Positions 263 through 34,390 of a stretch of DNA of 64,000 nt are shown here, in pieces. Position 1 is the stretch's first letter, and every line of letters starts with the position of its first letter. The notes below the pieces were generated by a model. That model did not search any database and was not told the DNA's origin. It saw only the letters and a program-made list of their open reading frames with translations. Source of the stretch: Candidatus Omnitrophota bacterium (GTDB lineage: Bacteria; Omnitrophota; Gorgyraeia; Zapsychrales; JAHFFX01). A program made the translations under genes and the position numbers. The stretch is taken from the NCBI GenBank assembly GCA_023247705.1, contig JAHFFY010000006.1, forward strand, positions 6,623 to 70,622, in the 5' to 3' direction.

Positions 263-2212
263 ATGAAAAAAATATGTTATGGAATATTCTTGTTGTGTTT
301 TCTGATGGCCGGCGGATTTTCTTTCGCAGAAGCCCCACCGATCTCCATTCCACAAAACGTTAATTCTCCCGGTGATGTAAAACCGCAAGGATCAGAAGAA
401 TCTAACCCGCTTTCGTGGGAGCAACAAAATCAACAAGCCCCGTATACGATTTTATTGCAGGAACAACAAGTTAAAGTGCATGAAGATGGATCACAGGACA
501 TTTATAATCATTTTAAAATTAAAATTCAGAATCCGGGTAATGATTTTTCGTGGGAGATGCCGATTTATTATAATAAAGATAAAGAATCCGTTGAAATATT
601 AAACGGCATGCTGACAGATCCCGACGGAAAAATAACGCCAAATAATAATCCGCAAGATGTCTTGGCTTATCCCGAATTTTCCCAATATTCGATGCTGCAT
701 AAGAAAGCTATTTCTTTCTCTGGTACAAAATCGGGAAGTATCGTCGAATTGAGCTTTAAAGGAAAGATATTTAAACCGCTAATTAACAAACAATTTTGGT
801 CAGAAGTTTCTTATCCAAGCGCCCCTACCAAATTATTTAAGAATACATTTATTTTTCCTCGAAAAATGAAGGTCAATTATAAGGAATACAAAATTCAAGA
901 AAAACCACAAATCACCAGCGATCACGCCGATGTTAGTTATTTCTTTCAACTCGAAGAAACAGAAAGTTTTCTATCAGGAAAAAAGTTTATCCCTCCTTTG
1001 CAGGAACTATTGGGGGCCGCGACATTTTCTTCTTTAAAAGATTGGCGTATCTTGGCTAACTGGTATCGCCAGTCGGCTAAACAAATGATTGTTGAAGATC
1101 AGAAAATCAACGATCAAGTTGCCGAATTAATTAAAGATAAGAAGAGCGAACAAGAAAAGGCAACGAGCATTATTGAATTTATTCAAGATCATTTTCGTTT
1201 GGTTCCGGTGCCTTTTGCTCAAAGTCCGGAATTTAGTCCCACCAAGGATGTATTTCATAATCAATACGCTGATAAAAAAGATTGGGTTTTATTGACCAAG
1301 CAAATGTTAGCGGTCGCCGGAATTAAAGCAAATATTTGTCTCCTGCGCAACGAATATGAAGGCGATCCCAATAATGAATTACCTAACCCAGTCGTATTTG
1401 GCGATATCATTTTAGAGGTATTTGTAGACGGCGAGAAATATTTTGTTGATCCTGTTTTAAGAGGTTATTCGCTCGGACATCTGCCATCGACCTATCAAGC
1501 CGCTTATCTTTTTGTGATTACGGATGATCAATATCGTTTTGATCATATCCCGATTTATGATGAAACCAAGAATAAAGTCGTAAGCCACATTAATGTTTTT
1601 ATTGAACCCAGTGGTAACGCGATTTATGAAGTTGAAAACGATTGGGGAGTGGATGTGGGTTTCCCGGTTAAAGAACATTGGCGAAGCCTGACGGGCGAGG
1701 CCAAAAAGCAATTTTATGATTCTTTGGATGATCATTATCTTCAAGGGGCGGCATTAATGGATCGTAAATGGGACGGTTTGGATGATCGTTATGAGTCATT
1801 AAAGAGCCTGATACGATTCAAGAAAAATAACGCCTTCCTGTTATTGAATGATACGACGATGGTCTTAAATGAGAAGCCGGAAAATCGTTTTATCGGGTTT
1901 GATCAAGAGAAACGAAAATATCCGATATACTTTCCTATCAATTCCGTTGTGCAAAACACGATTGTTTATCATATCCCGGCCAATTTTAAAATAGACTCTA
2001 TTCCGGAGAATTATGATTTGAAAAACGACATCCTGGAAATTTCCCGTACGTTTGAATCGCCTGAATCGGACAAGAGCACGATTAAACTGACGGACATTTA
2101 CAGGACCAAACGGGGCAGTTTGCCGAAAGAAAAATATCCGGAACTGCAAGGGATCTGGGAGGCTTTTCGCAAGAATAGTGAGAAATATATTATTTTGAAA
2201 AAGACAAATTGA
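263..2212 (+). CDS. Secreted protein, tentatively DUF3857/transglutaminase-like family
   Basis: 649-aa ORF with an N-terminal signal peptide (MKKICYGIFLLCFLMAGGFSFA) and an upstream SD. The central region resembles DUF3857/TGc-like proteins, but no clear catalytic Cys was seen. Confidence 0.5.
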   Translation: MKKICYGIFLLCFLMAGGFSFAEAPPISIPQNVNSPGDVKPQGSEESNPLSWEQQNQQAPYTILLQEQQVKVHEDGSQDIYNHFKIKIQNPGNDFSWEMPIYYNKDKESVEILNGMLTDPDGKITPNNNPQDVLAYPEFSQYSMLHKKAISFSGTKSGSIVELSFKGKIFKPLINKQFWSEVSYPSAPTKLFKNTFIFPRKMKVNYKEYKIQEKPQITSDHADVSYFFQLEETESFLSGKKFIPPLQELLGAATFSSLKDWRILANWYRQSAKQMIVEDQKINDQVAELIKDKKSEQEKATSIIEFIQDHFRLVPVPFAQSPEFSPTKDVFHNQYADKKDWVLLTKQMLAVAGIKANICLLRNEYEGDPNNELPNPVVFGDIILEVFVDGEKYFVDPVLRGYSLGHLPSTYQAAYLFVITDDQYRFDHIPIYDETKNKVVSHINVFIEPSGNAIYEVENDWGVDVGFPVKEHWRSLTGEAKKQFYDSLDDHYLQGAALMDRKWDGLDDRYESLKSLIRFKKNNAFLLLNDTTMVLNEKPENRFIGFDQEKRKYPIYFPINSVVQNTIVYHIPANFKIDSIPENYDLKNDILEISRTFESPESDKSTIKLTDIYRTKRGSLPKEKYPELQGIWEAFRKNSEKYIILKKTN

Positions 2213-2237: not shown

Positions 2238-2285
2238 ATGGGCTGAGACTCAATCGTTGAGTATTTCAGCCCATATTTTTTGTTT
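2238..2285 (+). terminator. Rho-independent terminator
   Basis: Stem ATGGGCTGA/TCAGCCCAT encloses an inner palindrome ACTCAA..TTGAGT and is followed by ATTTTTTGTTT. Confidence 0.6.
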
Positions 2286-2294
2286 AAAATTTTT

Positions 2295-2320
2295 GTAACT
2301 AATTGTCCTGGTCAAGCGTT
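2295..2320 (+). promoter_or_regulatory. Candidate ECF-type promoter (GTAAC-N17-CGTT) upstream of the sigma factor gene
   Basis: AAC and CGTT elements are spaced 17 nt apart, about 30 nt before the ECF sigma ATG. ECF sigma genes are often autoregulated from such promoters. Confidence 0.3.
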
Positions 2321-2348
2321 TAACGGTTGAGAGAGAGAAAGAAGACGA

Positions 2349-2930
2349 ATGGAGAAGAAAGACGAAGACCTGATGCTCGATTATATTCAAGGCGACACAG
2401 ACGCTTTAACGACGATCTTCCATCGTTACAAGAAACCGCTTTTAAATTATGCCCTGCGCATATTAGGCAACCGGGCGGACGCGGAAGATATTTTAAGCGA
2501 GGTTTTTATGGTAATTTTCAGTAAAAAATATCAATTCAATCCTAACGCTAAATTTTCGACCTGGGCGTACACCGTGACGCGCAATATGTCCATTTCCAGG
2601 ATCCGTCAGAAAAAAAACGTTCTGTCTTTATGGTTCAAAAATGAGGAAACGGATGAGCTGGAACCCTGGGAGATTGCTGATTCTAAATCACTTCCTCCGG
2701 AAGATATACAAAGAGCGGAGACCATTCAACATATCCGCAACGCGATCCAAAAACTTCCTCTCGCTCAGCGCGAGGCCTTGGTTTTGAGGGAATATCACGA
2801 CCTCAATTACGAAGAAATCAGTACGATTCTCAAGTGTTCTTTGGAGAACGTGAAGATTTTGATTTTCAGGGCCAGACAAAATTTAAGTAAAACGATTCCG
2901 TCCTTCGTGAAGGAGGAGAATCATGGCTGA
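2349..2930 (+). CDS. ECF-family RNA polymerase sigma factor (sigma-70 regions 2 and 4)
   Basis: Region 2 motifs (DAEDILSEVFMVIF, FSTWAYTVTRN) are present. Region 4 contains an HTH (LPLAQREALVLREYHDLNYEEISTIL). Length is 193 aa. Confidence 0.9.
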   Translation: MEKKDEDLMLDYIQGDTDALTTIFHRYKKPLLNYALRILGNRADAEDILSEVFMVIFSKKYQFNPNAKFSTWAYTVTRNMSISRIRQKKNVLSLWFKNEETDELEPWEIADSKSLPPEDIQRAETIQHIRNAIQKLPLAQREALVLREYHDLNYEEISTILKCSLENVKILIFRARQNLSKTIPSFVKEENHG

Positions 2931-5655
2931 TCATATCGAAATGCAACAATTAATCTCTGCTTATTTTGACGGCGAACTCTCTCAATCGCAGAAAGAATCG
3001 GTGGAGCAACACATCAAAGAATGCGATTCTTGCCGGCGTTACGCCCAGGAGTTGCAAAAGATTTCGTCTTCGTTAAAAAAGTGGAACGATGAATCTCTCT
3101 CTGCGGACTTAGAACAAAAAATCAACGAACGGCTTAGGACGATCAAGTCTAAGGAGGAGAATATGAATCGGAAAATGATATCCATTGGAGTTGGAACGAG
3201 TGTGGTAACGGTGGTTGTGTTGGCGTTTGTTTTTATGCAGACTTATGCTCAAAGATCTTTGCAGTGCCGGATCCGCGATGCGGGACAATATTTAGCGAAG
3301 AGGAGCTATGATTTGGGTCGGGCAGATCAATATGAACCCCAGTATATTAGTACCGGTTACCAGATCGCGCAGGCAAACAAATCGTCGTCGATTCAGGCAG
3401 CGACACAAACAGCGCCGCGGTTAGAGACCGATTTGGCGATGAGTCGACCAGTAGACAAAGAAGAACCCCAGGAAAAGAAATTGATGGCTGGACTGCAAAG
3501 CAGTTCCGAATATTTAAAACAACGCGGGTATGGTGTTTCGAGTCAAGGTTATCCCGTTGAGAATAAAATTGGACAATTGGCCGACGCCAAGGATTTGCAA
3601 CAAATCCCTGCCTCAAAGGGAAGTTCGCTGGGCGATAGAAGTCAGTATGAGTCTTATTATCTGGAAACGGATTATAACAGTCAACGCAGAGCTAGCGTCA
3701 ATGAAGGTTATAAGAGAACAGATCCTTTTCCTAGCGGCAACATAAACTCAACCTTGTTGTCCGATGAGACGGCTGCGACGGATGCGGTTGGTTATCGTTC
3801 GCGCGAGATCGGCGGATTCCAGCGGGAAGGACAATTGGCTAAGGCACCTGCGACGTCTAATGTCACGATGAACAGCCAGGTGATGAATGTACAGCAGGAA
3901 TTTTGGGGAGGATCATCAAGTTCTCTCAGGGGTTCTTCTTCGGGTGTTGCTGGCACTAAGAATTTAAATGGTGAACTGGCGTCAGCAGGAAGAGATTACG
4001 AAAAATATCAGCAAAATTTTCCGGCAAAAGAAATCGTGCATGAACCGCCACCGCCACCGATGCAATCGAGCCAACCGGCTGGTTATGGCGGTGAGTATGA
4101 ACGAGGGCCGTCGGGGTATCAAGATGATCAATTAAAAAAGGGAATGATGTATACGCAATCTTATACGGCGAATACGGAGGATTACGATCGTAGATTGGAA
4201 AATCCTTTCTTGAATTCTTGGGATGATCCTCTTTCGACGTTCTCTATCGATGTGGATAAAGCCTCGTATGCCAATGTCCGCCGGTTTATTAATGAAGGGC
4301 AATTGCCTCCACCGGAGGCGGTGCGCATTGAAGAGTTGATCAATTATTTTAATTATGATTATCCTCAACCGCATTGGTGGGATGCTCCGTTCACCATCAC
4401 CACCGAGGTGTCGCGTTGCCCTTGGAATCAGGACCATCATCTGGTTTTGATCGGCTTGCAAGGAAAAAAAATCGACAATAATTATATTCCGCCGAGCAAT
4501 TTCGTTTTCTTGATTGATGTGTCTGGCTCGATGGACCAGCCGAATAAATTGCCGCTGTTGAAAGCGTCTTTCAAATCGTTTGTCAAAGAATTGCGCTCCA
4601 ACGACCGGGTTTCGATTGTGGTCTATGCCGATCGGGCCAGTGTCATTCTGGATTCAACGCCCGGTTATGATCAGGATCGTATTTTAAGCGCGATCGACAG
4701 TCTTTCTCCCGGCGGATCCACCGCAGGGGGAGATGGAATCCAGTTGGCTTATCGTATCGCCCAGGATCATTTTATTCCTTCCGGAAATAATCGCGTGATC
4801 CTTGCGACCGACGGCGATTTCAACGTGGGTGTCAGCTCGGACGAAGAGCTGGTGAACTTAATTGAAGAAAAAAGAAACCAGGGCGTTTTCCTGACGGTGT
4901 TGGGTTTGGGAACAGGGAATCTCAAAGACAGCAAGATGGAAAAGCTGGCCGACCACGGCAACGGCAATTATGCCTACCTTGATAATGTGATTGAAGGAGA
5001 AAAGATTCTGATCAACGAGATGTCGGCGACCCTTTTGACCATTGCCAAAGATGTGAAGATCCAGGTCGAGTTTAATCCGGCCAAGGTCAAATATTACCGG
5101 CTGATCGGTTATGAAAATCGATTGTTGGCCAAGGAAGACTTTAATAACGATTACAAAGATGCCGGTGACATCGGTGCGGGACACAGTGTCACCGCGTTGT
5201 ATGAAATCGTTTTGGCCGATTCAAGGGAAGGTCGCAGCGGTTCTCCATCGGTCGATCCGTTGAAATATCAAGACCAGGGCGAATTCGGTCAGGGACGAAT
5301 CATTCCCAGCGTTGATTTGATGACGGTCAAACTCAGATACAAGGAACCGAAATCAATTTCCTTGATTCCATCTCAAACGTATCGTTACAATGGCCCTCAA
5401 GAAGAGAGCAAATTATTAACGCGGGTGATCAAGGAAAGAGACATTCAATCGTCTCCGCGATCGAATCATTTCAAATTCGCCTCGGCGGTCGCGGAATTCG
5501 GATTGTTGTTAAAACATTCTTATTGCCCGGAGGGGGTTTCGTATGACGGTGTCCTTAAAAGAGTGCAGGAATCTTTGGGTAAAGACGCTCAGGGAGAGAG
5601 GGTCGAATTTTTTAGGTTAGTTAAAATGGCGAGATTTTTGGCAGAGAGCCGATAG
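2923..5655 (+). CDS. Anti-sigma factor (zf-HC2, single TM) fused to a YfbK-like DUF3520 + von Willebrand factor A domain
   Basis: The ORF overlaps the sigma gene by 8 nt (ATGGCTGA). The N-terminus carries H-x3-C-x2-C (HIKECDSCRRY) followed by a TM segment at about aa 85-105. A long S/Q/G/Y-rich linker follows. The C-terminus has a vWA MIDAS-like motif (DVSGSM) and YfbK-like segments (SIVVYADRAS, GGSTAGGDGI, ATDGDFNVG). Confidence 0.8.
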   Translation: MADHIEMQQLISAYFDGELSQSQKESVEQHIKECDSCRRYAQELQKISSSLKKWNDESLSADLEQKINERLRTIKSKEENMNRKMISIGVGTSVVTVVVLAFVFMQTYAQRSLQCRIRDAGQYLAKRSYDLGRADQYEPQYISTGYQIAQANKSSSIQAATQTAPRLETDLAMSRPVDKEEPQEKKLMAGLQSSSEYLKQRGYGVSSQGYPVENKIGQLADAKDLQQIPASKGSSLGDRSQYESYYLETDYNSQRRASVNEGYKRTDPFPSGNINSTLLSDETAATDAVGYRSREIGGFQREGQLAKAPATSNVTMNSQVMNVQQEFWGGSSSSLRGSSSGVAGTKNLNGELASAGRDYEKYQQNFPAKEIVHEPPPPPMQSSQPAGYGGEYERGPSGYQDDQLKKGMMYTQSYTANTEDYDRRLENPFLNSWDDPLSTFSIDVDKASYANVRRFINEGQLPPPEAVRIEELINYFNYDYPQPHWWDAPFTITTEVSRCPWNQDHHLVLIGLQGKKIDNNYIPPSNFVFLIDVSGSMDQPNKLPLLKASFKSFVKELRSNDRVSIVVYADRASVILDSTPGYDQDRILSAIDSLSPGGSTAGGDGIQLAYRIAQDHFIPSGNNRVILATDGDFNVGVSSDEELVNLIEEKRNQGVFLTVLGLGTGNLKDSKMEKLADHGNGNYAYLDNVIEGEKILINEMSATLLTIAKDVKIQVEFNPAKVKYYRLIGYENRLLAKEDFNNDYKDAGDIGAGHSVTALYEIVLADSREGRSGSPSVDPLKYQDQGEFGQGRIIPSVDLMTVKLRYKEPKSISLIPSQTYRYNGPQEESKLLTRVIKERDIQSSPRSNHFKFASAVAEFGLLLKHSYCPEGVSYDGVLKRVQESLGKDAQGERVEFFRLVKMARFLAESR

Positions 5656-5682
5656 TTTTATAAATCATTTTGTAACGATCAG

Positions 5683-5713
5683 CGGGCCGCTTTAAAGGCG
5701 GCCCGTTTTTTTT
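5683..5713 (+). terminator. Rho-independent terminator
   Basis: Stem CGGGCCGC, loop TTTAAAG, stem GCGGCCCG, followed by T8. Confidence 0.8.
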
Positions 5714-5942
5714 ATAATCCCCCCGGCCAGTTGAATCATAATAAGATGTTACCAGTTAGGGACAAAAACTTTCTGATCACCTTTGCGTATTCTTTTATTT
5801 CACAGGGAAGATCCCCCTGGTCCGGTCAGGGGTGTAGTCCTGGTAGCGACGTTTTGATCACCACCAAGAATGTCATACGCATGCCCACCAGCTTTCCAGA
5901 CAATTGCCAGGTGCAACAAAAATTTCTATCCTATAAAAAAAT

Positions 5943-5972
5943 TTGACATAAAACAAGCTCCCGTGTTACAGT
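5943..5972 (+). promoter_or_regulatory. Possible sigma70-like promoter (TTGACA-N18-TACAGT) for the small ORF
   Basis: The -35 hexamer is perfect and the -10 is weak. It lies about 70 nt upstream of the 37-aa ORF. Confidence 0.3.
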
Positions 5973-6039
5973 TAAATTAAATCATCTGGAAATTTTTCTG
6001 TGTTCGAGATGTTGTGGTTAGGAAAGGAGGTGAGGAACG

Positions 6040-6153
6040 ATGAAAAAGATTCTTGCCATCGTGTTGCTGGGTTTCGCGTTGTTTGCCGTAGGAACAATGA
6101 CTGCGCTCTCTTTTATGGGCTCAACAGCCATTGCAGCTGAAGGGGGAGAATAA
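6040..6153 (+). CDS. Small hydrophobic peptide (37 aa; MKKILAIVLLGFALFAVGTMTALSFMGSTAIAAEGGE)
   Basis: A strong SD (AGGAAAGGAGGTGAGG) sits 8-10 nt upstream of the ATG. The peptide has a single hydrophobic helix. A terminator hairpin follows immediately. The ORF is below the 60-aa threshold of the supplied track. Confidence 0.5.
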   Translation: MKKILAIVLLGFALFAVGTMTALSFMGSTAIAAEGGE

Positions 6154-6174
6154 TCCCTTTGGAAAGGTTTATAG

Positions 6175-6212
6175 AAAAAGGAGATGTGAGAATGCACACA
6201 TCTCCTTTTTTG
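6175..6212 (+). terminator. Rho-independent terminator
   Basis: Stem AAAAAGGAGATGTG pairs with CACATCTCCTTTTTT around an 8-nt loop. Confidence 0.8.
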
Positions 6213-6316
6213 TTGTGCTTTGTTGGAAACTGTTTTTTATGTTGGTACTGTTGCAAAATAAGAGAAAAATGAAAAACCAACGACAGAAAATGGTTTTTGA
6301 TTCTCGCCTTGGGAGG

Positions 6317-6478
6317 CAAAAAATAACCTCGGAGGTTACTCATTTATTGTCCAGAGGGGGCTTCGTATGAGGAAGTGATCAAACGGGCGCAGGAATCAAC
6401 GGGGAAAGATTTGCAAGGAGAGCCGTCGGAATTTCTTCGTTTAGTGAAGATGGCCAGATTTCTGGCAGAAGGCAGGTA
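6317..6478 (+). pseudogene. Relic of a paralogous copy of the C-terminus of the vWA anti-sigma protein
   Basis: The frame opens after a TAA and has no start codon. It translates to ..CYPEGASYEEVIKRAQESTGKDLQGEPSEFLRLVKMARFLAEGR*. This aligns with the last ~43 aa of the 910-aa protein (YCPEGVSYDGVLKRVQESLGKDAQGERVEFFRLVKMARFLAESR*) at about 70% aa identity and about 75% nt identity. A terminator of the same style follows. Confidence 0.65.
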
Positions 6479-6512
6479 GCGCGCGAAAGAAAATTAAAAG
6501 AGAGCATATCAC

Positions 6513-6544
6513 GCGGGTTGTCCAAAAGGCGACCCGCTTTTTTC
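6513..6544 (+). terminator. Rho-independent terminator (duplicated style)
   Basis: Stem GCGGGT with partner ACCCGC, then TTTTTTC. Confidence 0.7.
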
Positions 6545-6616
6545 TTGCCTTGCAAATATTTTTTTCATTAGGTATAGTAAGCCTTTCAATGAACCGCGAA
6601 AAATTCTTGATGAATT

Positions 6617-8170
6617 ATGAAAAATAAATATTTTTTGATCGGCTGCGTTTTGGTTTCGGTCGTCCTTTCGTATCTTTCTTTCCCGAACTGTTTCAATTTT
6701 TTCGGCTATTGGCCTTTGGCGTGGATTGCTTTGGTTCCGTTTTTCTGGGTGCTGGGGCAATCTTCATTGAGGGAGAGGATTATTTTAGGAAGTATTTTTT
6801 CTATTCTTTTCTTTGGGATCCTCGTGTATTGGACCGCCCCGGTCAGCCTCTTAATTTATATTATCTTTGTCTTGATGTTGTCTTTGGCGCCGATTTTATT
6901 CGCCGTGTTGTTTCCTTGTCCAACTCAAAATAGATGGATCGGTTTGATTTATTGTCCCGCGTTATGGGTGGCGACGGAATTCTTGCGCACGATGGTGATG
7001 GGAGGATTTTCCTGGACGCTGGGGCATTCGCAGAGTTTTCATGTCAACGCGATTCAACTCGCCGGTTGGACCGGGGCCTATGGGATCTCTTTTGTTTTGG
7101 TTTTATTTAATTATTGTCTTTTTTGCATCCTTAAAGAGGAGGGGCATTGGGTTCGTTATACCATTGTTGCGATTGGTACAGTTTCGCTGGTTTTGCTTTA
7201 TGGATATGACGCGACGACAAAAAATATCACTCAAGAATTTCCGTCGCGATTATATGAAGCCTGTCTGATCCAGCCTAATATCACAACACAAGAAAAGTCA
7301 GAAGATGATCATATCGATCAAATTATTGAAAAATATATTCATTTGACGAACCAATGTTTGGATTCTTATCAACCTGATCTGGTTATCTGGCCGGAAACGG
7401 CCATCCCAGATGATTTTATCAAAGATCCAACGATGCGAGGCAGGATTAGTGCCATTGCGACGGAGATCAAAACGCATCTTTTGCTTGGGGCGGCACTGCT
7501 TGAGAACGATCATGATTACAACAGCGCGGTTCTTCTTAACGGCCGCGGCGCTGTTTTGGATATTTATAACAAACAAAATCTTATTCCTTTCCGGGAGTAT
7601 TTGCCGTTTCAGGAGGTTTTTGGTTTTTTGAAGAGTCTCTTTCATGTCGAGATTTATGATTTCTATCCGGGAAGGGCTTTAGGGGTTTTTACAATTCGTA
7701 AAAAGGACGTGTTGAAAAATTATGTTGAGAACAAGTTTGGCGTGGTGTTGTGTTCCGAAGGCGCTTATCCGACGCTCTTTCGAAAACTCGTTTGGCAGGG
7801 AAGCGGATTTGTCGTGGTTATGCTTAACGATGCCTGGTTCAAAAGTCCGGAAGCATTGATCATGCACACCCAAAATGAAATTCTCCGCGCTGTTGAAAAC
7901 AGAATCCCCATCGTGCGTGCGGCCAATTCCGGCTGGTCCTGTGCGATCGATCCTTACGGGCGGGTTAAGTCCTTGGGGCCGGGGATATCTTCTTTAAACA
8001 CCACGGGATTTTATTTATCGCATATCTTTCCTAATAACCAGCCTACATTTTATACCGAAAACGGGGATATTTTTTCATACTTGTGTATTGTTTTTGTTAT
8101 AATGATTTTCGTTATTATTGAAGTTCTTTCGATCAAGCAAAATTTCCAATCTTCTCAAAAGAGACCGTGA
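6617..8170 (+). CDS. lnt: Apolipoprotein N-acyltransferase
   Basis: The N-terminus is polytopic. The CN-hydrolase domain carries WPETAIP (Glu), Lys and the VVLCSEGAY Cys motif. Length is 517 aa. Confidence 0.85.
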   Translation: MKNKYFLIGCVLVSVVLSYLSFPNCFNFFGYWPLAWIALVPFFWVLGQSSLRERIILGSIFSILFFGILVYWTAPVSLLIYIIFVLMLSLAPILFAVLFPCPTQNRWIGLIYCPALWVATEFLRTMVMGGFSWTLGHSQSFHVNAIQLAGWTGAYGISFVLVLFNYCLFCILKEEGHWVRYTIVAIGTVSLVLLYGYDATTKNITQEFPSRLYEACLIQPNITTQEKSEDDHIDQIIEKYIHLTNQCLDSYQPDLVIWPETAIPDDFIKDPTMRGRISAIATEIKTHLLLGAALLENDHDYNSAVLLNGRGAVLDIYNKQNLIPFREYLPFQEVFGFLKSLFHVEIYDFYPGRALGVFTIRKKDVLKNYVENKFGVVLCSEGAYPTLFRKLVWQGSGFVVVMLNDAWFKSPEALIMHTQNEILRAVENRIPIVRAANSGWSCAIDPYGRVKSLGPGISSLNTTGFYLSHIFPNNQPTFYTENGDIFSYLCIVFVIMIFVIIEVLSIKQNFQSSQKRP

Positions 8171-23375: not shown

Positions 23376-23457
23376 GCGCGGGTGGCGGAATTGGTATACG
23401 CGCACGTTTGAGGGGCGTGTGGGGTAACCCGTGAGAGTTCAAGTCTCTCCCCGCGCA
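23376..23457 (+). tRNA. tRNA-Leu, anticodon GAG, type II with long variable arm
   Basis: Cloverleaf folded by hand. Acceptor GCGCGGG/CCCGCGC. 3-bp D stem. Anticodon stem CACGT/GCGTG with loop TTGAGGG. Variable hairpin GGGG-TAA-CCC. T arm GAGAG-TTCAAGT-CTCTC. Discriminator A. No CCA is encoded. Confidence 0.8.
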
Positions 23458-25346: not shown

Positions 25347-28148
25347 ATGATTATTAAACCCACCAATTCTAAAAATCTGCGTAAAATTGGGCAAACAGCA
25401 ATAGAATATCTTTTATTATTATGTTTGGTCGCTGGTGTGGTCCTTGCCTCTTTTAACGCGTTAGTCCCTCGAGCACAAGTAGCATCCGGTCAATTTTATA
25501 ATAAAGCTGCAGAAAGTATTATGGGAGCTCCTCCGGTTATTCCTTGTATGGCTGATGGGACTTGTAGCGCCACACCACCTACTTCCTGCGGTTTGATCAA
25601 TAGCGGTTTTGACAATTGCGGTCGTATCTGTCAGATCGCGTCAAAACCCTGTTGTGCTCCCGTCGGCTGTCTTGCCGGTGATTGCGGCCTGAAGGATGAT
25701 GGGTGTGGAACACAGATTAACTGCGGTCCATGTTGTATGCCTGTTGGTTGTTTACCGGGAGAATGTGGACTCATACCTGATGATGGATGTGGTAATCCTA
25801 TTGATTGCGGTCCTTGTTGTCTTATTCCCAGTTGTTTACCTGGAGAGTGTGGGATGAAATTTAATCCATGTACCGGGGCTAATGATATTGATTGTGGGAT
25901 ATGTTGTTCTCCGAGTGGATGTTTACCAAGCGAGTGCGGTCTTAAAGATAATGGTTGTGGCGTACAGATCAATTGTGGGACATGTTGTGCTCCGGTTGGC
26001 TGCTTAACAGGTGAATGCGGGACTAAGGATGATGGTTGCGGGACGATTATCGATTGCGGCGCTTGTATTCCTCCTGGATGTGGCGCGACACCGGTTTTCA
26101 CCAATGCGACGGTTCAACTCGGAGGATCGAATCATGGAGATACGCGAGATGTCATATGTGATCCGGGTTATGTGGGGACATCCGTGACCATTATTTGTGA
26201 CGCAGGGACTTGGGTCGGAGCTGGACCAAGTTGTTTGAGTCCTAATGATTGTGCTGGAGGATCAATTCAGATCGGGATCGGGGTTACCGGAATATTTCCT
26301 CCTACGAGACATGGAGATACCGTTACATTCGTATGTCCAGCAGGGTTTACTGGAAGTCCGTGGATGCTGTGTATGTTTGGATCATGGCAGACCTTGATTG
26401 GTGCTTGTGATCCTATTCCATCTTCTTGCTCTGCGGGAGTTGTCCCCATCGGATCAGGTATTTTGGGTGCCGTCCCGGTCACAATACATAATGATACTGT
26501 TTCGTTTAATTGTCCAACAGGATATACAGGGAGTCCAACGGTAAGATGCAACAATGGAACTTGGGAAGTTGTCCTAGGGGCTTGTGATTTAATTCCGGCT
26601 GAGTGTCCGGCATTTGTTGTTTCTCTAGCAGGAGGAGGTACAGTGACTTTTCCTTCGACTCCTTCGGGCCAGACCGTAACAATGACTTGTCCAGCGGGAT
26701 ATCTAGGATCGTTATCCAGTAATTGTTTTTCTGGTTCTTGGAATCCTATTCTTGGAGCCTGTGATATTTCCTTTGCTGATTGTCCTGTATGGGTGATTGA
26801 TTTAGGAGGAGGAAAAACATTGACTTTTCCGTCTACGCCCCCAGGAAATACCGTCACGGTCAATTGCCCTATAGGGTTTAGTGGCGCTATGTCCAGCACC
26901 TGTAGCTTTGGCGTGTGGGGCAGTATTTTGGGAGGGTGTAATATTGCATTTCCGAATTGTCTTTCTTTTCTGGTTCCTATAGGCGGGGGAAATCAGGCAA
27001 CTTTCCCAGATACCCCTTCTGGTCAAACCGCCATCATTTTTTGTCCATCAGGGTTCTCTGGACAATTAACTAATATTTGTTTTGCTGGCGCTTGGGGGAT
27101 AACTTTAGGGTCATGCGCTCCGATTATCCCTGGTTCATGTTCTGGATTTACAGTTACCTTGTCAGGTGGAGAAACTGTGACCTTCCCAAACGCCATTGAC
27201 GGGCAGACTCTAACCGCCCCATGCCCTCCCAATTATAGCGGAACATTGTCCAATACTTGTAGTTTAGGATCGTGGGGGCCTATGGTGGGAGCGTGTACGC
27301 CTCTTCCCATTGATGGGGGTTGGTGTTGGAATTTGTGGGGGGACTGTTCTGCTGGTTGCGGTCTTCCGGGAACACAAACGCGAACGGTAATTGGTTGTAA
27401 TTGTCCGACTCCATCCAATGGTGGAGCGTTTTGTTCCGGCCCATCGACTGAGACACAGGCTTGTATAGGTTTATGTTCTGCCCCTGTAGATGGCGGATGG
27501 TGTTGGTCTAATTGGAGTACCTGCTCTGCGGGTTGTGGAGGAACAGGGACACAGACAAGAACAGCAACTGGTTGTGGATGTCCTGCTCCTGCTAATGGTG
27601 GAGCATCTTGTTCTGGTGCAACGTCTGAGACGCAGAGTTGCAGCACTCCTCCTTGTACTTGTACGGGTCCTGTTCCATCAAACGCAAATATTTGTTCGGG
27701 TGATGATATCGGACTGATGGTGGATACACCTTATTCCGTTGTGATGACGTGTGGCGCACCAAAATGTGAATACACTTGTAAGCCGGGTTTTATTCCGGAT
27801 GGTGCGACTTGTCGACTTCCGGGTTGCGTTGGCCCGATACCAGGAAATGCTACAATTTGTAGCGGAGATGATATTGGTGTGGCCGTAGATACTCCTAGAG
27901 TTATTGTTGGATTTTGTGGTCCAGTAAAATGTGAATATCTCTGCAATTCAGGTTTTGTTCCTTCCGGGACATCTTGTCGTATTCCTCAGTGTACCGGGGT
28001 CATCCCAAGTAATTCAAATTTATGTCCTGGAGACGATCTAGGTCTTCCATTCGATTCTCGCAATATTCTTGTTGGTGCCTGCGGCCCGGCAAAATGTGAA
28101 TATACATGTAAAGCAGGCTTTACTTTCAATGGAGCATCCTGTAATTAA
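25347..28148 (+). CDS. Large secreted Cys-rich protein with an Flp-pilin-type leader, tandem Cys repeats, Sushi/CCP-like modules and thrombospondin type-1 repeats
   Basis: The N-terminus (KIG/QTAIEYLLLLCLVAGVVLA) matches the class III prepilin motif G/xTAIEY. Five ~29-aa repeats of the form PCCxPxGCLxGECGxKDDGCGxxIDCG follow. About 7 modules have 4 Cys plus a conserved GxW (CPAGYxGSxxxxCxxGxWxxxxGAC). There are two WxxWxxCSAGCGxGTQTRT TSP1-like repeats and three C-terminal ~55-aa repeats. Confidence 0.75.
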   Translation: MIIKPTNSKNLRKIGQTAIEYLLLLCLVAGVVLASFNALVPRAQVASGQFYNKAAESIMGAPPVIPCMADGTCSATPPTSCGLINSGFDNCGRICQIASKPCCAPVGCLAGDCGLKDDGCGTQINCGPCCMPVGCLPGECGLIPDDGCGNPIDCGPCCLIPSCLPGECGMKFNPCTGANDIDCGICCSPSGCLPSECGLKDNGCGVQINCGTCCAPVGCLTGECGTKDDGCGTIIDCGACIPPGCGATPVFTNATVQLGGSNHGDTRDVICDPGYVGTSVTIICDAGTWVGAGPSCLSPNDCAGGSIQIGIGVTGIFPPTRHGDTVTFVCPAGFTGSPWMLCMFGSWQTLIGACDPIPSSCSAGVVPIGSGILGAVPVTIHNDTVSFNCPTGYTGSPTVRCNNGTWEVVLGACDLIPAECPAFVVSLAGGGTVTFPSTPSGQTVTMTCPAGYLGSLSSNCFSGSWNPILGACDISFADCPVWVIDLGGGKTLTFPSTPPGNTVTVNCPIGFSGAMSSTCSFGVWGSILGGCNIAFPNCLSFLVPIGGGNQATFPDTPSGQTAIIFCPSGFSGQLTNICFAGAWGITLGSCAPIIPGSCSGFTVTLSGGETVTFPNAIDGQTLTAPCPPNYSGTLSNTCSLGSWGPMVGACTPLPIDGGWCWNLWGDCSAGCGLPGTQTRTVIGCNCPTPSNGGAFCSGPSTETQACIGLCSAPVDGGWCWSNWSTCSAGCGGTGTQTRTATGCGCPAPANGGASCSGATSETQSCSTPPCTCTGPVPSNANICSGDDIGLMVDTPYSVVMTCGAPKCEYTCKPGFIPDGATCRLPGCVGPIPGNATICSGDDIGVAVDTPRVIVGFCGPVKCEYLCNSGFVPSGTSCRIPQCTGVIPSNSNLCPGDDLGLPFDSRNILVGACGPAKCEYTCKAGFTFNGASCN
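25647..26095 (+). repeat. Five tandem ~87-nt coding repeats (Cys-rich units)
   Basis: Read directly from the translation at aa ~101-240. Confidence 0.7.
27312..27660 (+). repeat. Two tandem TSP1-like coding repeats
   Basis: GGWCWNLWGDCSAGCGLPGTQTRT.. and GGWCWSNWSTCSAGCGGTGTQTRT.. are seen directly in the translation. Confidence 0.7.
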
Positions 28149-33583: not shown

Positions 33584-33658
33584 AGGCCCCATCGTCTAGC
33601 CTGGTCCAGGACAAAAGATTCTCAGTCTTTAGACGCGGGTTCAAATCCCGCTGGGGCT
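33584..33658 (+). tRNA. tRNA-Glu, anticodon CUC
   Basis: Hand-folded. Acceptor GGCCCCA/TGGGGCT with one G-U pair. D stem GTCT/GGAC. Anticodon stem AAAGA/TCTTT with loop TTCTCAG. T arm GCGGG-TTCAAAT-CCCGC. Length 75 nt. Confidence 0.7.
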
Positions 33659-33724
33659 ATATTTTTCGGTGAAAGGACAGAAAAACATTCTTGCCAGTCA
33701 AGTTTAATGTGTTAATATAACCCT

Positions 33725-33958: not shown

Positions 33959-34390
33959 TTGATGTCTAGTATCATTTCTGCCACATCACCGTATCTTCTG
34001 GAAAACGGCCCCATTTACCCAGTCATTATTACACCATCATTCCCTACTATTGAGATTTTATGGTTGGAGAGAAAAGACGTCCTGCATATTAAAGTACAGG
34101 CATTATTTGATACTGGAGCGCAGACCACGGCGATTAGTGAAAAAGTTTCCCACTCTCTGAAACTTGTTCCAAGAGGCACCACCAAAGTTTACACATCCCA
34201 ATCCAGCAAGATTGTTAATAAATATGATATAGCGTTGGAATTTGATTCGGATATGTATATCAATACCTTAAGGGTATTTGGTGCCGATCTCCAAGATCAC
34301 AGCATTGATTGCTTGATTGGCCGGGACGTTCTGCAATTCGGCGTTTTCACGTATGATGGCCTGAACAAAAGGTTTAAATTAACGTTTTAA
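33959..34390 (+). CDS. Retropepsin-like (clan AA) aspartic protease, single domain
   Basis: Catalytic motif ALFDTGAQTTAIS (D-T-G-A) and C-terminal LIGRDVL. The 143-aa size matches standalone bacterial retropepsin-like proteins. Confidence 0.6.
   Translation: MMSSIISATSPYLLENGPIYPVIITPSFPTIEILWLERKDVLHIKVQALFDTGAQTTAISEKVSHSLKLVPRGTTKVYTSQSSKIVNKYDIALEFDSDMYINTLRVFGADLQDHSIDCLIGRDVLQFGVFTYDGLNKRFKLTF

Follow-up and report, generated by a model that had tools for sequence, protein, structure and literature searches.

The sigma/anti-sigma pair encoded in the analysed window, a stretch of 64,000 nt from a Candidatus Omnitrophota bacterium (GCA_023247705.1, contig JAHFFY010000006.1, positions 6,623-70,622 of the forward strand), is a self-contained bicistron with its own promoter and with strong terminators on both sides (Table 1). 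The first gene encodes an ECF sigma factor and the second a 910-aa anti-sigma factor in which a zinc-finger anti-sigma domain, one TM helix, a disordered tether and a YfbK-type vWA module follow one another. An ECF sigma coupled to a vWA-bearing anti-sigma had already been proposed from the letters of the DNA in an earlier sequence-only reading, and the Pfam matches, the TM segment and the structural model agree with that proposal. It is rather likely that the pair works as a stand-alone, positively autoregulated switch, in which a ligand at the MIDAS of the vWA module would gate regulated proteolysis.

Table 1. Features of the sigma/anti-sigma locus and of its upstream neighbour (positions in the window; residues of the anti-sigma)
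Feature	Position	Strand	Basis or remark
DUF3857 gene	263-2212	+	Pfam; upstream of the sigma gene
Intrinsic terminator of the DUF3857 gene	2238-2281	+	Between the DUF3857 gene and the sigma operon
ECF-type promoter TTGTAAC-N17-CGTTTA	2293-2322	+	27 nt upstream of the sigma ATG
ECF (group 4) sigma-70 factor, 193 aa	2349-2930	+	Pfam, TIGR02937
Predicted cytoplasmic class I / ZAS anti-sigma domain, residues 1-79	2923-3159	+	zf-HC2, RsiW profile
Predicted single TM helix, residues ~85-106, N-in/C-out	3175-3240	+	Kyte-Doolittle
Predicted disordered periplasmic tether, residues 107-415	3241-4167	+	pLDDT, composition
Predicted extracytoplasmic YfbK-type module, residues 416-910	4168-5655	+	Pfam, model
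Intrinsic terminator, end of the bicistron	5681-5715	+	Hairpin then T8

The sigma and anti-sigma ORFs (2349-2930 and 2923-5655, as first given) were verified together with the 8-base stretch that they share (2923-2930, ATGGCTGA), and the same pairing, with an overlap of 4 or 8 bases, was seen in every relative examined, the other neighbours being variable. The core of the original reading holds, namely an ECF sigma, translationally coupled, with a single-pass zf-HC2 anti-sigma that bears a YfbK-type vWA module on its extracytoplasmic side. Because the genes share 8 bases and their pairing is conserved, we infer that the anti-sigma binds and inhibits its cognate sigma. The upstream terminator consists of a hairpin at 2238-2274 (dG -20.7 kcal/mol, z -5.8) followed by a T-run, and the downstream one has a 12-bp stem with 8 G-C pairs (dG -21.5 kcal/mol, z -5.1). 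In the 960-bp gap that follows (5656-6616), no Rfam RNA was found at gathering thresholds and the matches with E<=1 were at chance level, so that an RNA gene considered for this region was dropped.

The sigma factor belongs to the ECF (group 4) class, since it has regions 2 and 4 only (Sigma70_r2, E 5.7e-15; Sigma70_r4_2, E 2.2e-14; no other sigma region was matched by Pfam) and scores 105.2 bits with the TIGR02937 sigma70-ECF model, for which the cutoff is 42.9. Its closest solved structure is SigW (5WUQ_A, E 1.2e-20). The vWA-linked sigmas of Ignavibacteria, Verrucomicrobia and Planctomycetes are 22-30% identical to the sigma of the window, below the 31% identity of an unrelated ECF, which indicates that the fusion accompanies more than one ECF lineage.

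The promoter listed in Table 1 is the only zero-mismatch match to its motif in the window. At the equivalent site 5' of the orthologous sigma gene, TTGTAAC-N16-CGTT(T/A/G)A was found in L002, L005, L006, L007 and L025, and L058 carries TTGTAAC-N17-CGTC; the promoter is conserved at six independent loci. That five independent relatives have it in front of their sigma orthologue points to autoregulation, and the operon is presumably under positive control of its own product. A search for target promoters in the 64-kb window with the strict and the relaxed motif rendered the operon's own promoter as the sole exact site, and the matches with up to 2 mismatches were at chance level and lay inside genes. 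The AAC-N17-CGTT promoter that the sequence-only reading had anticipated for target genes was found at the sigma gene itself (2295-2320), and further targets were not found in the 64-kb window. A TGAAC-N16-CGTT sequence at 34362-34386, upstream of a FAD_binding_4 gene, was rejected as weak and no better than chance.

In the N-terminal part of the anti-sigma, a zf-HC2 domain (Pfam, residues 7-38, E 2e-10) contains the zinc motif H30-x3-C34-x2-C37 (HIKECDSC at 30-37), and H4 is also present. H30, C34 and C37 are invariant in the homologues compared (n=18), and the predicted model has four helices, with pLDDT block means of 94-97 over residues 11-50 and lower values past residue 50. This helical N-terminus with H-x3-C-x2-C corresponds to a class I / ZAS anti-sigma domain, for which the profile comparison gave RsiW (5WUQ_C) as the best match (E 1e-10, positions 5-77), with weak matches to RsrA (E 0.064) and ChrR. 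Residues 85-106 are the sole segment with a 19-residue Kyte-Doolittle mean above 1.6 (maximum 2.41), the flanks of this segment carry six K/R on the N-terminal side and three on the C-terminal side, and the predicted model places a helix at 93-130. A single-pass topology is thus predicted, with the N-terminus in and the C-terminus out, as in anti-sigmas of the RIP-controlled RseA/RsiW type. The zf-HC2 motif and the one TM helix had both been noticed at the outset, and both are present.

A different role for the zinc motif has to be considered at this point. RsrA senses thiol oxidation, and H-x3-C-x2-C might likewise constitute a cytoplasmic redox/zinc switch, with the extracytoplasmic module as unrelated cargo, for instance an anchored adhesin or scaffold. 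The invariance of the complete ZAS motif would fit such a switch, as would the weak similarity of the profile to RsrA and ChrR, but the best match is to a membrane-bound protein, RsiW, and zinc is structural in the membrane ZAS proteins (RsiW, RslA). Moreover, the Cys motif is altogether absent from three verrucomicrobial/planctomycete vWA anti-sigmas (L044, L047 and L058), which indicates that the architecture works without it, and we consider redox sensing quite unlikely as the function of this protein.

The extracytoplasmic module was matched by three Pfam domains in YfbK-type order, each near its full profile length: vWF_A (PF12450, residues 416-508, E 7e-40), VWA (528-685, E 1e-16) and YfbK_C (PF12034, which is DUF3520; 702-904, E 2e-61). 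All the domains named beforehand for the anti-sigma (zf-HC2, DUF3520 and VWA) were matched by Pfam, and the proposed DUF3520-plus-vWA module stands as to its domains but not as to their order, since DUF3520 comes last. The DVSGSM MIDAS pointed out earlier corresponds to DVSGS at 532-536, and the full set of MIDAS residues comprises D532, S534, S536, T600 and D630. Across 83 sequences, D532, S534, S536 and D630 do not vary and T600 is kept in at least 90%; the predicted MIDAS is intact and conserved, and about 100 further positions of the module are likewise the same from phylum to phylum. The model of the module has a pLDDT of ~90, and a Foldseek search with it rendered ArnB/ArnAB (8S05, E 1.6e-16) and ITIH1 (6FPY, E 5e-13), with 4FX5, 5A8J and Sec23/24 as further matches; the proteins that resemble it in structure (ArnB, ITIH1, pilus adhesins) are vWA modules of the MIDAS type that bind proteins. 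ArnB, the Sec23/24-like proteins and ITIH share with the module a MIDAS vWA domain together with a beta-sandwich and are protein-binding platforms, but they are only 12-16% identical to it. They come from the cytoplasm of archaea or are secreted by eukaryotes, and they have no sigma link.

Closer relatives are found in the YfbK family (the 'Ca-activated chloride channel homolog' of KEGG), which has the three full-length Pfam domains and the intact MIDAS, but most of whose members appear to start from a lipobox or a signal peptide, frequently with CarboxypepD_reg after it. Among the YfbK homologues at the best 80 GTDB loci, 5 have an adjacent sigma gene and 75 do not; many of the latter have N-termini that, judged by eye, resemble signal peptides or lipoboxes, consistent with the module acting outside the cytoplasm. 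Both in the version joined to an anti-sigma domain and in the free secreted or lipoprotein forms of Cyanobacteria, Bacteroidota and Acidobacteria, the module keeps 51-59% identity between phyla. This argues for a conserved ligand and suggests that the ligand could be a universal envelope component. Given the invariant MIDAS, a sensor role of the vWA domain, as first suggested, is plausible.

In the autoregulated switch that we favour, the anti-sigma domain would hold the sigma factor at the membrane at rest. A ligand in the periplasm, probably an envelope component that bears a carboxylate and is widely conserved, would bind to or leave the MIDAS, and this change would open the tether or the juxtamembrane region to a site-1 protease. 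An intramembrane (site-2) cut and the cytoplasmic breakdown of the anti-sigma domain would then free the sigma factor, as happens with RsiW, RseA and RsiV, and the freed sigma would transcribe its own operon and a regulon lying outside the 64-kb window. No site-1 protease or S2P was found among the window ORFs scanned for domains, up to ~42 kb. The nearest solved relatives of both partners come from one complex, Bacillus subtilis SigW-RsiW (5WUQ), and in RsiW, too, a class I zinc-binding anti-sigma domain precedes a single TM helix; the promoter is likewise of the AAC...CGT type. The extracytoplasmic domain of RsiW is, however, small (~100 residues), whereas the anti-sigma of the window has a 300-aa tether and a 500-aa vWA/YfbK module; RsiW is cut by PrsW and then by RasP. 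RsiV, the SigV anti-sigma, is itself the receptor for lysozyme, with a DUF4179-type domain and cleavage by signal peptidase. It is comparable by analogy only, in the proposed logic that the extracytoplasmic domain of an anti-sigma directly binds the signal and licenses site-1 cleavage, but its sequence and fold are not known to be related to those of the window anti-sigma.

The tether is about 300 aa long, rich in S, Q, G, A and Y and predicted to be disordered, with a pLDDT of about 33 (about 30-39 over residues 129-410), and its length and sequence vary among homologues. It had been described as a low-complexity S/Q/G/Y linker; the enrichment is there, but with a residue entropy of 3.98 bits, against 4.10 in the globular part, the tether is not truly low-complexity. 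As RseB does for RseA, and the extracytoplasmic part of RsiW for RsiW itself, the vWA module might act as a shield that keeps a stress-activated site-1 protease off the tether or the juxtamembrane region, without responding to any specific signal, and the switch would then report generic envelope damage or misfolding. The position of SigW/RsiW as the closest solved relatives and a long, disordered tether that would be accessible to proteases are consistent with shielding, and so is the presence, directly upstream of the sigma gene in L005, of an HtrA-type Trypsin-PDZ protease gene and three HSP20 genes. This protease neighbourhood occurs, however, in one relative only, and the MIDAS and the ~100 other invariant positions of the module exceed what a passive shield would need. 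We regard pure shielding as doubtful.

The tether also contains the conserved short motifs DQYEPQY (135-141) and QYESYY (241-246), and a QYE(P/A/S)YY-like motif is present in 28 of 57 ZAS-type homologues. Such an acidic motif, conserved in a tether that otherwise is not, could sit in the MIDAS of its own vWA domain as a pseudo-ligand, until a conserved envelope ligand or the mechanical stretching of the tether ousts it and leaves the tether open to proteolysis. This elaboration, displacement included, is in our view unlikely; if true, a bacterial sigma factor would for the first time be seen to be governed by integrin-style recognition of a ligand through a metal ion.

A YfbK-like vWA fold that follows a TM helix and a disordered linker is also a feature of the recently proposed TolA/TonB-like vWA 'force transducer' families, which would be coupled to a TolQR-type motor and are marked by adjacent tolQ(R) genes and either by a TolR-like Asp or by an SHLS/His motif within the TM helix (PMC12204202). 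The shared topology could suggest that the anti-sigma is one of these transducers. The TM helix MISIGVGTSVVTVVVLAFVFMQ, however, has neither the SHLS/His motif nor an Asp, tolQ, tolR and exbBD are absent from the flanks in the window and in the relatives examined, and at its N-terminus the protein carries an anti-sigma domain, with a sigma gene as the partner. With motif and motor genes missing, a force transducer is effectively refuted and extremely improbable.

The gene upstream of the bicistron encodes a protein with a DUF3857 domain (PF12969, residues 75-231, E 5.9e-18), for which a sequence search for solved structures rendered no relative. In the sequence-only reading this protein was labelled DUF3857/transglutaminase-like and placed in the same envelope-sensing unit as the pair. 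The first part of the label is borne out, but no transglutaminase family was matched by Pfam even at E<=10, and membership of the unit is not supported. A three-gene unit, in which the secreted DUF3857 protein would serve the vWA sensor as partner or ligand, is suggested by the adjacency of the gene to the sigma gene on the same strand and by an N-terminus that resembles a signal peptide. Against it, a strong terminator separates the genes and the sigma operon has its own promoter; in relatives that share the flanks (AP_endonuc_2 on the upstream side, lnt and glpK on the downstream side) the DUF3857 gene is missing from this place, and at the 11 sigma-linked loci examined no such gene lies upstream of sigma. 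The DUF3857 gene of the window is preceded by the 3' end of an AP_endonuc_2 gene (2-223), while in L002, L006 and L025 the sigma gene comes directly after AP_endonuc_2, which indicates that the DUF3857 gene is a lineage-specific insertion. A common unit is very unlikely.

The anti-sigma/vWA architecture is common in metagenomes, including Omnitrophota-like bacteria, Ignavibacteria and the PVC group, and the type of pair is not new, as it is already catalogued in the 2021 ECF re-classification and correctly annotated. A passage of Casas-Pastor et al. (2021, PMC7826278) describes for ECF289 a neighbouring anti-sigma with DUF3520 fused to a vWF domain. The window anti-sigma, at gene position +1, has YfbK_C/DUF3520, VWA and vWF_A, a match to ECF289 that concerns the anti-sigma architecture only. 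A search of the literature on vWA anti-sigmas, ECF289, DUF3520 and YfbK found no relevant experimental study. What is added here is a self-contained, presumably autoregulated bicistron with a conserved TTGTAAC-N16/17-CGTT promoter and a SigW/RsiW-like cytoplasmic side, as well as a YfbK module that is unusually conserved and joined to several ECF lineages. These properties make the family a reasonable target for finding the ligands of YfbK-type proteins.

Downstream of the pair, the window has lnt, and so have three independent relatives (contigs L002-L004 of P0003, L006 and L025). No ECF-type promoter precedes lnt, and it was rejected as a conserved third gene of the operon, given the lack of that promoter and the other genes found at this place in more distant relatives, which are DUF4139, CarboxypepD_reg with cytochrome oxidase, or TPR genes. 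We read the lnt linkage as probable inherited synteny.

The sigma/anti-sigma pair is real, and the sequence-only reading had for the most part described it correctly, including the positions of both ORFs. The genes are translationally coupled, with an overlap of 8 bases (ATGGCTGA) and a Shine-Dalgarno sequence (GAAGGAGGAG) directly 5' of the anti-sigma ATG. Regarding domain composition, the sigma protein matched Sigma70_r2 and Sigma70_r4_2 in Pfam and the NCBIfam ECF superfamily model (105 bits; cutoff 42.9), and all Pfam matches of the two proteins were well over the curated cutoffs. The topology of the anti-sigma is defined by a sole candidate membrane helix, residues 85-106 (Kyte-Doolittle 19-residue maximum, 2.41; no other window in the protein above 1.6), with K/R commoner on its N-terminal side than on its C-terminal side. 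The objections that the protein might lack the vWA/DUF3520 domains or the helix both fall, since both exist. The order proposed for the module was nevertheless wrong, DUF3520 being C-terminal of vWA, and the linker is biased in composition and disordered but not strictly low-complexity (entropy 3.98 bits vs 4.10 for the globular part).

Features of the sigma/anti-sigma operon and its borders
Feature	Window position	Strand	Anti-sigma residues	Details
Terminator of upstream gene	2238-2274			Hairpin then T-run; dG -20.7 kcal/mol, z -5.8
ECF-type promoter	2293-2322			TTGTAAC-N17-CGTTTA; between first terminator and sigma ATG
ECF sigma ORF	2349-2930	+		193 aa
Anti-sigma ORF	2923-5655	+		910 aa
zf-HC2			7-38	Pfam
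DQYEPQY	3325-3345		135-141	Related motif
QYESYY	3643-3660		241-246	Canonical motif copy
vWF_A (PF12450)			416-508	Pfam
VWA			528-685	Pfam
YfbK_C (PF12034, formerly DUF3520)			702-904	Pfam
Terminator of anti-sigma gene	5681-5715			12-bp G+C-rich hairpin + T8; dG -21.5; starts 26 nt past gene

Among solved structures, Bacillus subtilis SigW (5WUQ chain A, E 1.2e-20) is nearest to the sigma in sequence, and a profile of the anti-sigma N-terminus, built from 12 homologues, gave as its best match RsiW (E 1e-10, positions 5-77), the partner chain of SigW in the same crystal, followed by ChrR, RslA and DdvA, with RsrA far behind. Among 18 homologues the sole invariant residues of this region are H30, C34 and C37; H4 lies where ChrR carries its fourth zinc ligand. 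A cytoplasmic redox role could be envisaged for this zinc motif, but it is unlikely, because there are related vWA anti-sigmas without the cysteines. An AlphaFold2 model (83 homologues, mean pLDDT 69.7) showed four helices in residues 1-79 (block means 94-97 for residues 11-50, lower past 50), a long helix spanning the membrane segment, an unstructured stretch at 129-410 (pLDDT about 33) and a confident globular module at 411-910 (pLDDT about 90).

A zero-mismatch match to the ECF-type promoter was found within the 64-kb window only ahead of the sigma gene. Taken by itself this match is unremarkable, because relaxed forms of the pattern occur in the window at chance frequency; what counts is conservation. 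TTGTAAC-N16-CGTT(T/A/G)A is present at the same place 5' of the orthologous sigma, 50-63% identical to ours, in five independent relatives (loci L002, L005, L006, L007 and L025), and a planctomycete locus (L058) carries TTGTAAC-N17-CGTC. A promoter conserved in this way is the textbook mark of an ECF operon under positive autoregulation. The AAC-N17-CGTT promoter that had been predicted for target genes is borne out, but before the sigma gene itself; the motif search found no regulon member in the 64-kb window. Given this promoter and the flanking hairpins, the two genes form a bicistron that has a promoter and a terminator of its own. At L025 (4290-4385), three tandem -35-like elements (GGTAACTTCTGGTAACTTCCTTGTAACTTTTTT) lie 5' of the conserved CGTTTA -10, ahead of the orthologous sigma.

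A third partner had been proposed in the upstream gene (263-2212), whose product matches DUF3857 (E 6e-18); its transglutaminase label was not borne out, no such family being found even at E<=10. The window opens on the 3'-terminal part of an AP_endonuc_2-type gene (2-223; residues ...IGIHIHGVNGLKDHQAPFSGDFD...), and in L002, L006 and L025 this same gene directly adjoins sigma on its upstream side, so that the DUF3857 gene is an insertion specific to the lineage of the window. It stands between neighbours that are conserved, the terminator insulates it, and a three-gene sensing unit finds no support, given that terminator and the relatives without the gene there. Downstream, lnt, glpK, glpO and carAB are found in L002, L006 and L025 as in the window. 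Behind the pair comes lnt (6617-8170), both here and in three independent relatives (the first represented by contigs L002-L004, the others by L006 and L025); more distant relatives lack this arrangement, and lnt has no ECF-type promoter ahead of it. This linkage is probably inherited synteny, a tie to lipoprotein or envelope biology being conceivable. At L005 (3358-6089), the operon is preceded by genes for three HSP20 proteins, a MerR regulator and an HtrA-type Trypsin-PDZ protease, a stress-response neighbourhood.

Foldseek neighbours of the YfbK-type module included ArnB/ArnAB (8S05, E 1.6e-16), a Catenulispora vWA protein (4FX5), ITIH1 (6FPY), pilus-tip adhesins and Sec23/24, all of them MIDAS-type protein-binding vWA platforms with a beta-sandwich behind. 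The MIDAS consists of D532, S534, S536, T600 and D630; across 83 sequences the first three and D630 never vary, T600 shows at least 90% conservation, and about 100 other module positions are conserved likewise. Compared with its homologues from Cyanobacteria, Bacteroidota and Acidobacteria, the module is 51-59% identical. Since this cross-phylum conservation is high, and equal in tethered and secreted forms, it suggests a conserved envelope ligand and not a lineage-specific signal. The anti-sigma domain would sequester sigma, sensing would go through the MIDAS, and regulated intramembrane proteolysis could set sigma free, on the model of RsiW, RseA and RsiV; the analysis turned up neither a ligand nor, among the ORFs scanned for domains up to about 42 kb of the window, a protease gene for this release. 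The main rival to ligand sensing is that the module acts as a shield and a generic stress protease is the real sensor, as the HtrA-like protease and HSP20 genes beside the operon in one relative might indicate. The tether (residues 107-415) is unalignable except for a short acidic-aromatic motif, QYE(P/A/S)YY, similar forms of which are present in 28 of 57 homologues with a zinc-binding (ZAS-type) domain. Conservation extends to a juxtamembrane Q-x-Y-x-x-R motif; both could be protease or docking sites. Within residues 808-826 of YfbK_C (window 5344-5400) there is a 15-residue insertion, SISLIPSQTYRYNGP (about 812-826), unique among 18 aligned homologues and modelled at low confidence (pLDDT about 52).

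The ECF289 entry of Casas-Pastor et al. (PMC7826278) describes an adjacent anti-sigma with DUF3520 fused to a vWF domain, so that the architecture is already catalogued. A full-text search for ECF289, DUF3520, YfbK and vWA anti-sigma returned no experimental work, and our pair is a further example of a catalogued, experimentally uncharacterised architecture. The recently proposed TolA/TonB-like vWA transducers (PMC12204202) were rejected as a model on the TM motif and on the motor genes, which are missing beside the pair here and in the relatives examined.

About half of the best 120 database matches combine zf-HC2 with the three YfbK-type domains, with such source names as exist pointing to Omnitrophota/Omnitrophica, Ignavibacteriales and Chlorobi; proteins of the latter two have a CarboxypepD_reg domain inserted in the tether. 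On each relative's contig that was examined, the anti-sigma is preceded by an ECF sigma gene that overlaps it by 4 or 8 bases. Among the best 80 YfbK-like loci in GTDB representatives (one genome per species), only five have an adjacent ECF sigma gene (two with a ZAS-type domain, three without), so that within a large secreted family the anti-sigma form is in the minority; the other 75 have no adjacent sigma, and many of their N-termini resemble signal peptides or the signals of lipoproteins. The vWA-linked sigma factors of Ignavibacteria, Verrucomicrobia and Planctomycetes are 22-30% identical to the window sigma, less than an unrelated ECF (31%), and by this measure the module has evidently been joined to ECF factors of more than one lineage. 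At species level the nearest relative is L025, with 67% full-length identity; its label is uncultured Planctomycetales MAG, and several other close relatives carry the label Omnitrophota.

A 136-nt direct repeat (73% identity) lies at 5520-5655 and 6344-6479. From its second copy a 44-aa relic (YCPEGASYEEVIKRAQESTGKDLQGEPSEFLRLVKMARFLAEGR*) can be translated that shares 75% identity with the anti-sigma C-terminus (tblastn E 2e-17), is at protein level marginally closer to the relatives than the current end is, and has its own terminator (6513-6537) just before lnt. It looks like an 824-bp insertion or 3'-end replacement stranded an older end of the anti-sigma gene. This 824-bp stretch contains a sigma-70-like promoter (TTGACA-18-TACAGT with TG, 5943-5972), a strong RBS, a 37-aa hydrophobic ORF (6040-6153; MKKILAIVLLGFALFAVGTMTALSFMGSTAIAAEGGE) and a perfect 14-bp hairpin terminator (6175-6210); no Pfam or Rfam identity was found for 5943-6211. 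Elsewhere in the window, ARAGORN called a tRNA-Leu(GAG) at 23376-23457, the Rfam gathering-threshold scan giving only tRNA-Glu (33585-33659). A 933-aa ORF (25347-28148) weakly matches two eukaryote-type domains, HRM (hormone receptor) and thrombospondin type 1; none of its stretches passes alone, and it is probably a Cys-rich repeat protein.
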